Assembly (NCBI GenBank): GCA_965230915.1
Contig: OZ246395.1
Coordinates: 76,019 to 140,018 of the forward strand
From: an uncultured Candidatus Saccharibacteria bacterium
GTDB taxonomy: Bacteria; Patescibacteriota; WWE3; 2-01-FULL-39-13
Direction: 5' to 3'
DNA length: 64,000 nt
The translations under genes and the position numbers were made by a program. Every line of letters begins with the position of its first letter. The stretch's first letter is position 1. A model generated the notes under the pieces. The model saw nothing but the letters and a program-made list of their open reading frames with translations. It was not told the DNA's origin and ran no database searches. Below are positions 40,488 to 61,201 of this stretch, in pieces.

Positions 40488-41924
40488 GAGAGTTTGATCC
40501 TGGCTCAGGATTAATGCTGACGGCGTGCCTAATCTATGTAAGTTGATGGTTTACCAGCAATGGTATTCCATGGCAGACGAGTGAGTAACGCGTAGGAATC
40601 TACCCTTAAGATGGGGATAACCTCGGGAAACTGGGGATAATACCCAATGTGATCGCAAGATTAAAGCGCGAGCGCTTAAGGATGAGCCTGCGTCCTATCA
40701 GCTAGTTGGCGGGATAAAAGCCCACCAAGGCTATGACGGGTAGGGGGCGTGAGAGCGTGAACCCCCACGATGGCACTGAGATACGGGCCATACACCTACG
40801 GGTGGCAGCAAGTAGGAATATTGCACAATGGGACGAAAGTCCTGATGCAGCGACGCCGTGTGAAGGAAGAAGGCTTTCGGGTTGTAAACTTACGTTAAAA
40901 AGGAGCGGCAAACTTCGTGCCAGCAGCAGCGGTAATACGGGGGCTCCTAGCATTATCCGGTTTTATTGGGCGTAAAGAGTTCTGTAGGTGGTGTGGTAAG
41001 TTACAGGTTAAAACCTCCGGCTTAACCGGGGATGTGCTTGTAATACTGTCACACTAGAGGCAAACAGGGGAAAGTAGAACGCATGGTGTAGTGGTAAAAT
41101 ACGTTGATATCATGCGGAATACCGAAGGCGTAGGCAGCTTTCTGGGTTTGTCCTGACACTGAGAGACGAAAGCGTGGGGAGCAAAACGGATTAGATACCC
41201 GTGTAGTCCACGCCGTAAACTATGTCCACTAGATTCGTGGGTTTGATTTATCAAACTTGCGTGTCGCAGTTAACACATTAAGTGGACCGCCTGAGGAGTA
41301 CGGTCGCAAGGCTAAAACTCAAAGGAATTGACGGGGATCCGCACAAGCGGTGGAGCGCCTGCTTTAATTCGATGATAACCGAAGAACCTTACCGAGGTTT
41401 GACATGCAACTGCAAGCTCTATGAAAGTAGAGCCTCCTTCGAGGGTGTTGCACAGGTATTGCATGGCTGTTGTCAGCTCGTGTCGTGAGATGTACAGTTA
41501 AGTCTGGTAACGAGCGCAACCCTTACTGCTAGTTGTATCACTCTAGCGGAACTGCCCTGGCAACAGGGAGGAAGGCGAGGAAGACAACAAGTCAGCATGG
41601 TCCTTATACCTCGGGCAAGACAGGCGCTACAATGGCCAGTACAATGGGCAGCCATACAGTAATGTAGAGCTAATCTCATAAAGCTGGTCTCAGTTCAGAT
41701 TGAGGGCTGAAACTCGCCCTCATGAAGTTGGAATCGCTAGTAATCGTAGGTCAGCTATACTACGGTGAATACGTTCTCGGATCTTGTACACACTGCCCGT
41801 CAAGTCAGCAGAGTTGGGAATACCCGAAGTATCTATTAAATTAGGTCCTAAGGTAGGCTCAGCGATGAGGATTAAGTCGAAACAAGGTAGCCCTAGGGGA
41901 ATCTGGGGCTGGATCACCTCCTTT
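40488..41924 (+). rRNA. 16S ribosomal RNA (divergent, shortened ~1.44 kb)
   Basis: AGAGTTTGATCCTGGCTCAG at the 5' end and GGATCACCTCCTTT at the 3' end. The 530-loop, 790, 1390 and 1492 regions are present. The V3 (h17/h18) region is largely missing. Confidence 0.9.
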
Positions 41925-42116
41925 AAAGGAGAAAAATTTCGGTTTATTGAATCCCGGCTCGCAAGAGTCAATCAATAAACGGCTTTACGTGGAGCTAATC
42001 ACTTCAGTATTGTCACAAAAGCTAGCTTCTCATGCTAGCTCTAGATAGCTTTTTGCGTGAGGCTAAACGCATAACCGAATTCTTTTCACCGCTCAGATCT
42101 TGATTGAATATCAAGT

Positions 42117-42142
42117 AAAAAGCGCTCGCAAGCGCGCTTTTT
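42117..42142. terminator. A4-hairpin-T4 bidirectional terminator candidate
   Basis: AAAAAGCGCTCGCAAGCGCGCTTTTT. Confidence 0.5.
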
Positions 42143-42175
42143 GTAATAAAAATCTCTTTAAAATTAACAAACGAA

Positions 42176-42201
42176 GGCCGCAATTAAATGCGGCTTTTTT
42201 T
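42176..42201 (+). terminator. intrinsic terminator downstream of 16S
   Basis: GGCCGCA-AUUAAA-UGCGGC stem-loop followed by TTTTTTT. Confidence 0.7.
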
Positions 42202-42260
42202 GTTGCCTAAAAGTTAAGATAGGATTGCAAATTTTTATTTAATTCATGCGAGTTTAAGGG

Positions 42261-57550: not shown

Positions 57551-57866
57551 CTCTTTTACGGGCTCTTTTCTTTTTTTATTGGGTAAGTCACGGTCACAAA
57601 AACATCAAAAAAGTCTAAAAAAAGACGTTCAGAATTTCCCTATTTGCAATTCACAAAAACATTACATATAATTATTCCCAGTCATTTAGTTAACGTTGTT
57701 TTATCAACCTCTTAACCAGTCTGCTTTCTTGTATTTAATTTTCAGCAGACAAGCGCCAAATTTTGATTTCGCGCTCAAATTTTTTGTTAGAAAGTTTTAA
57801 AAATTTAATCGATCATCAATTAAAGTTTCTGCCAACCTTTAATTACGTATTTTGTGAGGCGATTCT

Positions 57867-57943
57867 GGGCCAATAGCTCAGTTGGCTAGAGCATCTCATT
57901 TGCAATGAGAAGGTCGTGGGTTCGAGCCCCACTTGGTCCACCA
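57867..57943 (+). tRNA. tRNA-Ala (anticodon TGC)
   Basis: GGGCCAATAGCTCAGTTGGCTAGAGCATCTCATTTGCAATGAGAAGGTCGTGGGTTCGAGCCCCACTTGGTCCACCA. G3·U70 identity pair is present. CCA is encoded. Confidence 0.9.
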
Positions 57944-58103
57944 TAAGATCAATTTAAAGTTCTTATTTGGAAATTCAGTTTCGACTGGCGTTCCAAACCA
58001 TGAACTTTAATACAGTCACGGTTTGTACTTTGAAAACTGAATAGATTAGCAAGTTCGTTAGAGTAGAAATTATTTCGTGAGCCGATCGCAAGATCGTGTC
58101 ACA

Positions 58104-60998
58104 GAAAGAAGAAAGAGCATATGTGTGGATGCCTTGGGATTTTGAGCTGATGAAGGACGTGTTAGGCTGCGAAAAGCCTCGATGAGCTGCCAAAAAGCGC
58201 TATTAGTCGGGGATGTCCGAATGGGGAAACCTGATAGGGTAAAACCTTATCGTTCTGCGCTTTATTGCGAGAACAGGCACTTGGGGAACTGAAACATCTC
58301 AGTACCCAGAGGAAAAGAAACTAAGTTAAGTATTCCCTAAGTAGTGGCGAGCGAAAGGGGAGAAGCCCAAACCAGCCTTCGGGCTGGGGTTGTAGGAGTC
58401 TCATACGTTTAGATTATCTTGTAGGAGAAGTTTCTGGAAAGTTAGTCCATAGAGGGTAACAGGCCCGTATCCGAAACAAATCGATCTAAATAGAGAATTT
58501 CCTGAGTACCACGGAACACGAAAATTCTGTGGGAATCTGCCAGGACCATCTGGTAAGGCTAAATACTCAAAATCACCGATAGTGAACTAGTACCGTGAGG
58601 GAAAGGTGAAAAGAACCCCGATAAGGGGAGTGAAATAGTAACTGAAACCATATGCTTACAAGCAGACAAAGCACCATTGGGGTGTGATGTCGTGCCTATT
58701 GAAGAATGAGCCTGCGAGTTTTCACTATTTGCAAGCTTAAGCTGTTCAGCAGCGGAGGCGCAGGGAAACCGAGTCGTGTTAATAGCGCGCAATTAGTAGA
58801 TAGTGAAAGACCCGAAGCCGAGTGAGCTAACCATGTGCAGAGTGAAGTTTCCCGAAAGGGAAATGGAGGCTCGAACCCGTAAATGATGTAAAGCTTTGGG
58901 ATGACATGTGGTTAGAGATGAAACGTCAATCGAACTCGGCAATAGCTGGCTCTCCCCGAAATATATTTAGGTATAGCCTCTGACAAAAGCTTACTGGAGG
59001 TAGAGATACTGAAAGGAATGCGGATCGAAAGATTACAATTTCCTACCAAACTCCGAATGCCAGTGTAGTGTTATCAGGGAGTCAGAATGCGGGAGCTAAG
59101 TTCCGTATTCAAAAGGGAAACAACCCGGACCGTCAGTTAAGGTCCCTAATCATGGCTTAGTGGGAAAGGAAGTATTATTCCTCAGACAACTAGGAGGTTG
59201 GCTCAGAAGCAGCCATCCTTTAAAGAGTGCGTAACAGCTCACTATTCGATCTGGGAGTAATGCGCCGAAAATTTAACGGGGCTCAAGCCATGAACCGAAA
59301 CTACGGATTGTATGATTTAGTTCATATGATGGTAGGGGAGCGTTCCAGAAACCTGTGAAGGTCACTAGTGATGGTGGCTGGAGGAACTGGAAGTGAGAAT
59401 GCAGGTATAAGTAGTAATAGAGGTGTGAGAACCACCTCAGCCGGAAATCTAAGGATTCCTACGCAATGACGATCAACGTAGGGTTAGTCGGTCCTAAGGT
59501 GCAGCCAAATGGTGATACCGATGGATAAACGGTTAATATTCCGTTACTCCGATTGTGTTGTGATGGAGGGACGCAGTTTGATAGACCAGGCACTCGTATG
59601 GTTGGGTGTCTAAGCAGCAAGTTAGTCCATATAGGAAAATCCGTATGGGCGTTTTTACGCGAGCTGTGGGCGAAGACTTCGGTCGAAGCTGGTTGCGTTA
59701 AGCTGCCTAGAAAAACTTCTAAACGTATACACAATTGGATCCGTACCGCAATCCAACACAGGTAGATGAGTTGAGAATACTAAGGCGAACGAGATAATCA
59801 AGTTTGAGGAATTCGGCAAAATCACCCCGTAACTTCGGGAGAAGGGGTCCCATCACCGCAAGGTGTATGGGCGCAGTGAAAAGGCCTGAGCGACTGTTTA
59901 ACAAAAACACAGCACTCTGCTTAACCCGCAAGGGGACGTATAGGGTGTGACGCTTGCCCGGTGCCAGAAGGTCAAATCTGAGGGTGACCACAATTTATTG
60001 TGGAGGCTTTCGGGCTAAGCCCTGGTAAACGGCAGCAGTAACTATAACTGTTCTAAGGTAGCGAAATTCCTTGTCATCTAATTAGTGACCCGCATGAAAA
60101 GCGTAACGACTTGGGCACTCTCTTAAACTTGAACTCGACGAACTTGAATTGGCCGTGAAGATGCGGCCTACCCACTGTGGGACGAAAAGACCCCATGGAG
60201 CTTTACTGTAGGTTGATATTGGCAAATATTTTTGAATGTTCAGTGTAGATGGGAGACTCGATCGCAAGATTGGGTCAACAATGAGACACCATCCTTTCAG
60301 AAATGTGAGCCTAACCCCTGAAATTAGGGGGACAATGTCTGCCGGGCAGTTTGACTGGGGCGGTCTCCTGCAAAAGAGTAACGCAGGAGCACAAAGGTTC
60401 ACTTGTTCCGGATGGAAATCGGAATGTAAGCGCAAAAGTAAAAGTGAGCTTGACTGCAAGAATTACAGTTCGAGCAGATACGAAAGTAGGTTTTAGTGAC
60501 CCTCAGGTTGAACATGGGTTCGCCTGAGCCATCGGATAAAAGTTACCCTGGGGATAACAGAGTAATGGTTCCCAATAGTCCATATTGCCGGAACCGTTTG
60601 CTACCTCGATGTCGGCTTGTCTCATCCTGGTGCTGAAGCAGGTGCCAAGGGTCTGGCTGTTCGCCAGTTAAAGAGGCGCACTAGCTGGGTTCAGAGCGTC
60701 GTAAGACAGCTCGGTCTTTATCTACAGTGGGCGTTACATAGTTGAGGGAATCTAATCCTAGTACGAGAGGACCGGATTGGGCGAACCTCTGGTGTGCCAG
60801 TTGTACTACCAAGTGCATTGCTGGGTAGCTACGTTCGTGACAGATAAGCGCTGAAAGCATATAAGCGCGAAGCTGTCCCCAAGATTAGCTATGTGTACCC
60901 TCCTCGGAGACTACGAGGTTGATAGGCGGAAAGTGTAAGTGCAGCAATGTATTGAGCTGATCCGTACTAATGGGTGATTCTACGCTAAGGAATTTGCA
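58104..60998 (+). rRNA. 23S ribosomal RNA
   Basis: GGATGCCTTGG near the 5' end and conserved 23S blocks throughout (…GGGAAACCGAGTC…, …AAACACAGGT…, …GACGGAAAGACCCC…). Leader 58037-58057 (TTTGAAAACTGAATAGATTAG) pairs with trailer 61001-61020 (CTAATCTATTCAGTTTTCAG) as a processing stem. Ends approximate. Confidence 0.85.
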
Positions 60999-61085
60999 AC
61001 TAATCTATTCAGTTTTCAGGGTATTAACCCTGAAAACGCATCGACGTAAGTCGAGTTCTTTTAAATTTTAACTAATGGTTTTTGT

Positions 61086-61201
61086 GTTGGTGATTTGAGC
61101 GGAGCGGAACAACCTCTTCCCATTCCGAACAGAGAAGTTAAACACTCCAGCGGTCAAAATATTGCTTTGGCAACGAAGTGAGAAAATAGCCCATCGCCAA
61201 C
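61086..61201 (+). rRNA. 5S ribosomal RNA
   Basis: …CCCATTCCGAACAGAGAAGTTAA… conserved loop. Terminal helix GTTGGTGAT/ATCGCCAAC. About 116 nt. Confidence 0.8.

Follow-up and report, generated by a model that had tools for sequence, protein, structure and literature searches.

Split ribosomal RNA locus of a putative WWE3-related bacterium: a probable in-place expansion of an ancestral operon, inherited across a clade

How does a bacterium come to carry its 16S and 23S ribosomal RNA (rRNA) genes 16,175 nt apart, with the two spacer transfer RNA (tRNA) genes still in order between them? We addressed this question in a 64,000-nt stretch of contig OZ246395.1 (assembly GCA_965230915.1), hereafter the window, where an rRNA locus is spread over about 20 kb. 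The rRNA and tRNA genes were called with Rfam and ARAGORN, and protein genes were identified from open reading frames (ORFs) and Pfam searches. All of the rRNA and tRNA genes lie on the + strand, and their order of 16S, tRNA-Ile, tRNA-Ala, 23S and 5S is that of a canonical rrn operon. Reading from 16S, one meets two predicted terminators, two giant genes, tRNA-Ile, five further genes, galU on the - strand and two tRNA-like elements before reaching tRNA-Ala-23S-5S. The original prediction, made from the letters of the window, had described the usual order as recognisable but disrupted, and the Rfam, ARAGORN and Pfam calls agree with it to within a few bases. The genes it listed between 16S and 23S (the giants, the five-gene block and the opposing galU) were matched by our ORFs and Pfam hits, and its estimate of about 14.5 kb of protein-coding DNA inside the locus compares with the approximately 14.6 kb that we found (42294-56922, eight protein genes). 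The 16S gene was likewise present, though Rfam moves its start from 40488 to 40482. We consider it highly probable that this is a single rRNA locus in which an ancestral 16S-Ile-Ala-23S-5S operon was expanded in place and split into separate units, an arrangement inherited across at least family-level divergence.

40482-41924, + strand: 16S rRNA, 1443 nt, without insertions (RF00177, 1360 bits, model positions 1-1533)
52548-52624, + strand: tRNA-Ile(GAT), CCA encoded (Rfam, ARAGORN)
57867-57943, + strand: tRNA-Ala(TGC), CCA encoded (Rfam, ARAGORN)
58100-60986, + strand: 23S rRNA, 2887 nt (Rfam, 2483 bits)
61086-61202, + strand: 5S rRNA (Rfam)
61297-62388, + strand: rpsA, ribosomal protein S1 gene (Pfam), which follows 5S in relatives too

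Contigs encoding NrnA and GalU homologues were fetched, and the rRNA, tRNA and cargo genes were mapped on each; most of the 80 metagenome loci proved too distant to inform. A profile scan of genome contigs with the NrnA alignment returned two loci, one of which (L011, WWE3) had no rRNA nearby. L092 is NCBI assembly GCA_943354835.1, L093 is an independent Logan contig, and L001 and L002 are independent Logan assemblies. The layouts found were as follows, with protein identities in brackets.

L004 (NrnA 68%): 16S 3' end, tRNA-Ile, ORF207, nrnA, rsmG, SpoU, galU (opposite strand), tRNA-like elements, tRNA-Ala, 23S
L092/L093 (GalU 77%): mnmA, ORF, 16S, ORF175, tRNA-Ile, DUF218, Sua5, rsmG, T2SSE, galU (opposite strand), tRNA-Ala, 23S, 5S, rpsA (S1)
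L003 (NrnA 72%): giant protein 2 homologue, tRNA-Ile, nrnA, then rsmG and the rest
L010 (NrnA 76%): giant protein 2 homologue, tRNA-Ile, nrnA
L005 and L012 (NrnA 40-43%): nrnA, X, rsmG, galU (opposite strand), tRNA-Ala, 23S
L021 (NrnA 48%): tRNA-Ile .. nrnA .. rsmG
L095-L097 (GalU 78%): 23S side kept; AbiEii and PIN genes where tRNA-Ile and 16S are expected

Taken together, the loci define a conserved skeleton: mnmA, an ORF and 16S, then tRNA-Ile with a cargo from which rsmG is never missing, an opposing galU, and finally tRNA-Ala-23S-5S-rpsA. The position and orientation of galU are the same in L003, L004, L005, L012 and L092-L098. Giant genes are lacking in both L004 and L092/L093, where the 16S-23S gap measures 5,675 and 4,986 nt, respectively. 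The 16S genes of the window and L092 are 86.6% identical, and the two also have the same genes upstream (HhH-GPD, 2-hydroxyacid dehydrogenase, Pyr_redox_2 and mnmA). Three slots in the skeleton vary. The first, from the 16S trailer to tRNA-Ile, is empty in L004, holds a 175-aa ORF in L092 and houses giant fibre genes not only in the window but also in L003 and L010. The second, around rsmG, contains nrnA, FkbM, SpoU, Sua5/TsaC, DUF218 or a T2SSE ATPase, several of which are RNA-modification or RNA-turnover enzymes, and the third, from galU to the 23S promoter, is either empty or filled with tRNA-like genes and hairpins. Because the relatives carry the same unlinked skeleton, in which tRNA-Ile has stayed next to 16S, tRNA-Ala next to 23S, and rsmG and galU form the core between, the split is, as judged from gene order, a character of the clade at roughly family-level 16S divergence.

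In the window, the cargo between tRNA-Ile and tRNA-Ala includes five tightly packed genes (52648-56036), upon which galU converges with a 17-nt overlap.

52648-53043, + strand: small protein with a C-terminal membrane anchor (tail-anchored; ORF)
53021-53911, + strand: FkbM methyltransferase (Pfam)
53935-54963, + strand: NrnA-like DHH/DHHA1 phosphoesterase (Pfam)
54923-55576, + strand: GidB/RsmG, 16S m7G methyltransferase family (Pfam)
55536-56036, + strand: multi-pass membrane protein (ORF)
56020-56922, - strand: GalU-like nucleotidyltransferase (NTP_transferase), convergent with the five-gene block (Pfam)

The original prediction had attributed the split to a single recent insertion of about 14.5 kb into the canonical operon of this genome, and had proposed a synteny comparison. 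With that comparison made, 16S-Ile-Ala-23S is found split in L004 and L092/L093 as well, and there without giant genes, which contradicts an event confined to this genome and is the very outcome that the original prediction had named as refuting it. In L003, L004, L092/L093 and L094 the rsmG/galU cargo is flanked by tRNA-Ile and tRNA-Ala, and in L005 and L012 it adjoins tRNA-Ala-23S. In the inserted DNA as a whole, neither mobile-element genes nor target-site repeats were found, and this DNA falls into at least two historical layers. A single insertion would accord with rRNA genes and spacer tRNAs that have kept their order and orientation, and with the lack of giant genes at the equivalent site in L004, but we judge it very improbable. 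The part of the claim that survives is insertion into an ancestral operon as opposed to relocation: expansion in place fits because order and orientation are kept and each spacer tRNA has stayed with its rRNA.

The giant genes appear to represent the younger of these layers.

42294-46481, + strand: giant surface/fibre-like protein 1, 1395 aa (LVIVD repeats, 448 bits; Peptidase_S74; N-terminal membrane anchor/signal)
46577-52429, + strand: giant fibre-like protein 2, 1950 aa (Peptidase_S74, an intramolecular chaperone domain)

The two proteins are paralogous (E = 6e-31) and have similar N-terminal membrane anchors, and the LVIVD repeats of protein 1 are of the beta-propeller type. Their similarity to phage tail fibres is remote and partial, and we read them as probable cell-surface fibres. 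Such genes were found only in the closest relatives, L003 and L010 (NrnA 72-76%), where homologues of giant protein 2 (54% and 44% identity, respectively) lie directly upstream of tRNA-Ile. L004 shows the same site in a giant-free state. Its positions 1-211 match the 16S end (window 41723-41933), 317-380 match the 16S trailer (42042-42105) and 585-718 match tRNA-Ile with its flanks (52524-52655), such that about 205 nt in L004 replace about 10.4 kb of the window (42105-52524, the terminators and both giant genes). For the giant genes, then, the original notion of an insertion agrees with the comparison, L004 joining the 16S trailer to the tRNA-Ile region at this point. The base composition of the giant block is only slightly unlike the rest of the window. 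Pfam searches of the eight cargo ORFs (42294-56922) revealed no integrase, recombinase or transposase domains, and no flanking direct repeats or duplicated tRNA 3' end were found at the block boundaries, the only repeats in 41900-52700 being internal to the proteins. A mobile-element origin by integration at a tRNA gene was rejected on these grounds.

Gain of the giant genes after the split is the simpler reading of their distribution, because the giant-free state occurs in both L004 and the more distant L092. The alternative, that the giants are ancestral here and that L004 and L092 have since lost them, seems unlikely. In its favour, gene loss is easy in Candidate Phyla Radiation (CPR) genomes, the giant-free relatives number only two, and the slot in L092 is filled by a gene, ORF175. 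This gene, however, is unrelated to the giant proteins and has a homologue in L004 located after tRNA-Ile, while the giants are confined to the closest relatives (NrnA 72-76%) and are missing from both a nearer (L004, NrnA 68%) and a farther (L092, 16S 86.6%) locus. We therefore prefer a gain in the sub-lineage of the window.

The surroundings of tRNA-Ile and of the rRNA genes in relatives hold further features. The ORFs at 13857-14384 (- strand) of L092 and 1065-1688 of L004 are homologous (40% identity, E = 2e-38) and lie before and after tRNA-Ile, respectively, a local move of either tRNA-Ile or the ORF175 homologue; the window has no homologue. A second copy of the tRNA-Ile 3' half (TAATTTGGAGGTCGGAGGTTC...GTCCTCCCTCGCCCACCA) stands just after tRNA-Ile in L004 (722-811), with an interruption of about 48 nt in the T-loop, and could have been left behind when this tRNA gene was duplicated or took part in recombination. 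AbiEii- and PIN-domain genes of the abortive-infection/toxin type lie beyond the rsmG cargo in L095 (14905-18829), which suggests that accessory genes generally tend to settle in the slot on the 16S side. Finally, ORFs for LAGLIDADG homing endonucleases occur within the 23S of L005 (10010-10558, in 23S 7758-11272) and on the ENA contig of P0134 (14104-14553), so that relatives bear them in the 23S and 16S regions; the window 16S (1443 nt) and 23S (2887 nt) have no LAGLIDADG-type insertions.

The sequence signals of the locus fit separate transcription units. From gene content, synteny and sequence signals, which can be read directly, we infer the transcript boundaries and processing events set out below.

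40357-40481, + strand: 16S promoter region and leader (TATAAT at 40379-40384)
42077-42161, + strand: 16S trailer with two 3' processing-helix strands, recognised by complementarity to the leader
42117-42205, + strand: two tandem intrinsic-terminator-like hairpins (42117-42142 and 42173-42198) with T-runs, from sequence
52441-52449, + strand: extended -10 promoter-like element TGCTAAAAT upstream of tRNA-Ile, of putative function
57644-57672, + strand: predicted promoter TTGCAA-17-TATAAT upstream of tRNA-Ala, from sequence; the hexamers align only in the window, L003 and L004
57689-57716, + strand: 23S-unit leader GTTAACGTTGTTTTATCAACCTCTTAAC (hairpin and boxA-like CTCTTAAC), from alignment
58031-61018, + strand: 23S inside a separate predicted processing helix (58031-58049 with 61000-61018; perfect complementarity over 19 nt, extended duplex -69.1 kcal/mol)

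The 16S promoter was placed by alignment with TTGACC-18-TAGAAT of L092. Leader positions 40469-40482 are a perfect 14-nt complement of trailer positions 42077-42090, and the far 5' part of the leader (40384-40397) is likewise perfectly complementary, over 14 nt, to 42148-42161 between the two terminators. The duplex energy is -26.9 kcal/mol. Because of these two complements the 16S precursor must reach about 240 nt beyond the mature 3' end, and the outer one suggests a primary 16S transcript that extends as far as the second terminator and has paired ends. Both L004 and L092 keep the trailer motif TTCTTTTCACCGC: in L004, a T-run follows it, and in L092 a terminator comes directly after the trailer helix. 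Of the tandem terminators named in the original prediction, the first stands at 42117-42142, and the second was found at 42173-42198 instead of 42176-42201. Upstream of tRNA-Ile, the motif TTTTCTGCTAAAATAC is common to the window and L004, the region is also kept in L003, and L092 carries TGGTATAAT. The first ORF of the five-gene block begins 23 nt past tRNA-Ile, and this spacing suggests a tRNA-mRNA co-transcript.

On the 23S side, the leader motif, also represented as CAACCTCTTAAC, is kept in six genomes (window, L003, L004, L092, L094 and L095), among which the DNA just upstream is unrelated; in L092 and L095 the promoter candidate upstream of tRNA-Ala is shifted. The match to CTCTTAAC at 57703-57716 occurs once in the window, and a search of the 16S leader found no boxA-like copy. 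This element resembles the boxA core of E. coli, and the boxA reading rests on that consensus. Taken together, the separate 16S and 23S helices, the predicted terminators, the 23S promoter and leader, the extended -10 element of tRNA-Ile and the convergent galU point to five or six transcription units, not to a single one. In such a scheme, 16S would be produced as an independent precursor, its 5' leader paired with its 3' trailer, and its synthesis would stop at the tandem terminators. The giant genes would use their own start region, tRNA-Ile and the five downstream genes would be transcribed from the extended -10 promoter, and galU would be transcribed convergently. The tRNA-like array would have its own promoter and terminator, and tRNA-Ala-23S-5S would be driven by its own promoter followed by the boxA-like antitermination leader, with 23S released through its own processing helix.

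A different possibility is that the whole locus is read as one long antiterminated rRNA transcript, processed to rRNAs, tRNAs and mRNAs, with the genes functionally linked. Every element but galU lies on one strand, a boxA-like element is present, and antitermination complexes on E. coli rrn operons read through intrinsic terminators. That element, however, sits after a promoter just upstream of tRNA-Ala and has no counterpart in the 16S leader. Such a transcript would also have to pass two strong terminators after 16S, run antisense through 903 nt of convergent galU and continue past the terminator-like hairpin that closes the array. Also against it, the predicted 23S promoter can be aligned with those of the two closest relatives, and the leader behind it is kept in six genomes. 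We find a single transcript distinctly unlikely and favor separate units.

Could the locus instead be an assembly artefact, in which rRNA genes were joined to unrelated DNA at 41.9-42.3 and/or 52.4-52.6 kb? Metagenome assemblies classically break at rRNA genes, an rRNA or tRNA gene lies at or close to the ends of the short-read contigs L001-L004, and no independent contig crosses 41.9-42.3 kb. Yet the 16S leader is perfectly complementary to downstream positions 42077-42090 and 42148-42161, so that both 16S flanks belong together, and the same trailer motif follows 16S in L004 and L092. The junction of giant gene, tRNA-Ile and nrnA recurs in two other organisms (L003 and L010), those of galU with the tRNA-like elements and of tRNA-Ala with 23S recur in L001, L003 and L004, and the flanking synteny (mnmA .. 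16S and 5S-rpsA) is common to L092. L001 and L002, which come from two other sequencing runs and represent the same organism, are 100% identical to the window over 53374-57348 and 53836-56745, respectively; runs SRR14271365 and SRR14271372 contain this organism. In all, the join of the 16S trailer to giant gene 1 is the one junction type without a counterpart in another organism. Exact-protein look-ups of the window RsmG and giant protein 1 returned no record. An artefact is very improbable on this evidence, and the arrangement is best taken as genuine.

Several points weigh against an inherited in-place expansion with separate transcription units. The left junction (16S trailer, terminators and giant gene 1; 42.16-42.29 kb) is without an independent assembly. 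The skeleton is not universal, since L095-L097 have neither tRNA-Ile nor 16S within about 8 kb of the cargo, and the polarity of gain versus loss of the giant genes rests on two giant-free relatives. The promoters, terminators and boxA are consensus matches predicted from sequence, and promoter-like matches in the region are not enriched relative to shuffles (37 found, 48.8 expected). In addition, L010 (NrnA 76%) was deposited as 'Saccharibacteria', at odds with nearest named proteins from WWE3, which leaves the label uncertain.

With respect to this label, the nearest named proteins to the window come from candidate division WWE3 (GalU 69%, NrnA 37%), and Saccharibacteria GalU proteins are about 52% identical to the window GalU. 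The window 16S has no clean match to the Saccharibacteria (TM7) signature probes, the TM7905 site reading ACTCAAAGG, and we did not adopt the 'Saccharibacteria' label of L010. We treat the organism as a member of the Patescibacteria, probably related to WWE3.

Between galU and the 23S promoter lies the only element of the locus without a ready explanation, an array of tRNA-like cloverleaves and hairpins. The original prediction had already noted an aberrant tRNA cluster here, and its presence was confirmed: the first element (t1) has a closed, extended anticodon arm and the second (t2) an 8-nt anticodon loop.

56963-56990, + strand: promoter-like site TTGCGT, 16 nt, (TGC)TAAAAT, putatively serving the array, read from sequence
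57035-57113, + strand: tRNA-like t1 (Rfam tRNA 45.6 bits, 21 nt in place of 15; ARAGORN)
57114-57216, + strand: RNA of about 100 nt with a 20-bp basal stem, directly after t1 (-46.3 kcal/mol, z = -5.7)
57230-57303, + strand: tRNA-like t2 (Rfam tRNA 67 bits; ARAGORN)
57304-57565, + strand: more stable hairpins, the last long and terminator-like (57500-57565; z = -7.1)

The region 57030-57570 is extremely structured (z = -12.6). The acceptor, D and T arms of t1 are normal and its anticodon arm is a closed stem of 7-9 bp with a GGG triloop, whereas t2 has all stems intact and an anticodon loop of 8 nt (CUUCCAUA). Both form cloverleaves with conserved D and T arms, but neither has a 7-nt anticodon loop or an encoded CCA, and on these features t1 and t2 do not qualify as ordinary decoding tRNAs. 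The Ile, Ala and Pro tRNA genes of this genome do end in CCA, a local regularity rather than a universal rule. Nor are the tRNA-like elements the ancestral spacer tRNAs.

Arrays occupy the same slot in relatives (window 57035-57565; L098 1-600, - strand; L003 6556-7030; L004 4856-5320; L094 180-342, - strand). They are hypervariable, following the same design with unrelated sequence and showing no DNA similarity though their flanks are 76-82% identical, and the slot is empty in L092, L095, L005 and L012.

L098 (GalU 83%): UUG element and one element with an enlarged anticodon loop
L003: GUU, UUA and GCG elements
L004: long-arm element, 68-nt cloverleaf and AAA element
L094: UUA element

Directly behind each tRNA-like element comes an RNA of 85-100 nt with a basal stem of 13-20 bp (z -3.6 to -6.1). 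Unusual anticodons include UUA (twice), AAA, GCG and UCCA. The fetched loci, 1.06 Mb in all, gave 53 tRNA predictions, and every one whose anticodon loop departs from 7 nt, or whose anticodon is of the 'stop' or non-ACG A34 kind, sits in this slot. Rfam searches with permissive E-values of the arrays from the window, L003, L004, L094 and L098 returned only tRNA and rRNA families, and signal recognition particle RNA, RNase P RNA, 6S RNA, transfer-messenger RNA and Y-RNA-like readings were dropped for this reason. The array is not repeated elsewhere within the window, and comparison with phage gave no match beyond generic tRNA similarity. Stop-codon recoding by the UUA anticodons was also rejected, given that TAA ends 33 of 48 window ORFs; TAG ends nine and TGA six, and because all three codons terminate ORFs the standard code applies.

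What, then, might the array do? Our tentative best guess is that the cloverleaves act as RNase P/RNase Z processing signals flanking small structured RNAs. More speculatively, the slot may be an undescribed noncoding RNA locus, separately transcribed and rapidly changing in its members, in which CCA-less cloverleaves are cut signals that release RNAs of about 100 nt; we hold this fuller proposal to be doubtful. Precursors of small RNAs punctuated by tRNAs exist in viral and eukaryotic systems, namely the tRNA-miRNA units of murine gammaherpesvirus 68 (MHV68) and MALAT1-mascRNA. As in those cases, a CCA-less cloverleaf of the array abuts a long hairpin that cuts by RNase P and RNase Z would free. 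In contrast to them, the array hairpins are about 100 nt long and branched at the tip, and the array is known from sequence alone. Some of its members could instead be natural suppressor or quadruplet-reading tRNAs, and decaying tRNA duplicates or recombination scars are duller alternatives to the processing signals that we propose.

The split locus has consequences beyond its own structure. Approaches based on 16S-ITS-23S (ITS, internal transcribed spacer) amplicons or on long-read linkage will miss this clade, for which the conserved rsmG/galU core offers a synteny marker. The slot between 16S and tRNA-Ile looks like a site of gain for large surface-protein genes and perhaps other accessory genes, and large surface proteins bear on the host attachment of these probable epibionts. 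Genes for enzymes of RNA modification or RNA turnover recur in and around the locus: MnmA, an FkbM-type methyltransferase (with a weak TRM5/TYW2 match), NrnA, RsmG, Sua5/TsaC and SpoU lie variously at 37891-39087 and 53021-55576 of the window, 12550-13134 of L092 and 3328-3861 of L004. With the upstream mnmA included, their closeness to the rRNA and tRNA genes hints at what may be a neighbourhood for ribosome and tRNA biogenesis.

How does this arrangement compare with known systems? It has in common with the canonical rrn operon of E. coli (PMC5179076) the gene order, the leader/trailer helices at 16S and 23S, and a boxA-like element. It departs from that operon in a 16S-23S gap of 16,175 nt instead of about 0.4 kb, in predicted internal terminators and promoters, and in the eight protein genes inside. 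The spacer thus exceeds the 1500 bp allowed to a linked operon, and the predicted signals and the opposite-strand gene depart from a single promoter region uninterrupted by internal terminators or opposing genes. In Borrelia burgdorferi (PMC3037291), tRNA-Ala and tRNA-Ile are likewise kept between a lone 16S and 23S-5S, and RT-PCR (reverse-transcription PCR) resolved three transcripts: 16S-tRNAAla, tRNAIle and 23S-5S. There, however, tRNA-Ala follows 16S, tRNA-Ile lies on the opposite strand and 23S-5S is tandemly duplicated, whereas in the window 16S shares its strand with the tRNA-Ile behind it, 23S-5S is single, giant genes take up 10 kb of a 16-kb gap, and the transcripts are predicted.

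The closest likeness is to the unlinked rRNA genes of CPR bacteria. Brewer et al. 2019 (10.1101/705046) defined unlinked rRNA genes by a gap of >1500 bp and found them to be the rule in Patescibacteria, among other clades. Lui, Nielsen and Arkin 2021 (PMC8172020) reported unlinked 16S and 23S in 27 of 34 circularised CPR genomes, described tRNAs and protein genes between them, and designated as type 'D' rRNA genes on the same strand, >2 kb apart, with opposite-strand genes between. The window shares with their cases a 16S separated by far more than 1.5-2 kb from a 23S-5S on the same strand, the intervening tRNAs and protein genes, the small genome, the clade-specific pattern and an opposite-strand gene, galU. 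Its distance exceeds both thresholds (1500-2000 bp), and the unlinked state is conserved in L004, L092/L093, L003, L094, L005 and L012. The mark of type D, an opposite-strand gene that would keep 16S and 23S from sharing a promoter, is present here as galU. Split rRNA loci of this sort, with tRNA and protein genes in the gap, are already on record for the CPR, and the inherited layout of the window belongs to that class. Those studies classify by distance and strand and do not include this skeleton, its three slots or the tRNA-like array. To that record the present analysis contributes a conserved core of rsmG and galU, three slots of variable content, a 16S unit that appears complete in itself, a predicted 23S promoter followed by a conserved leader, and a history in two layers.

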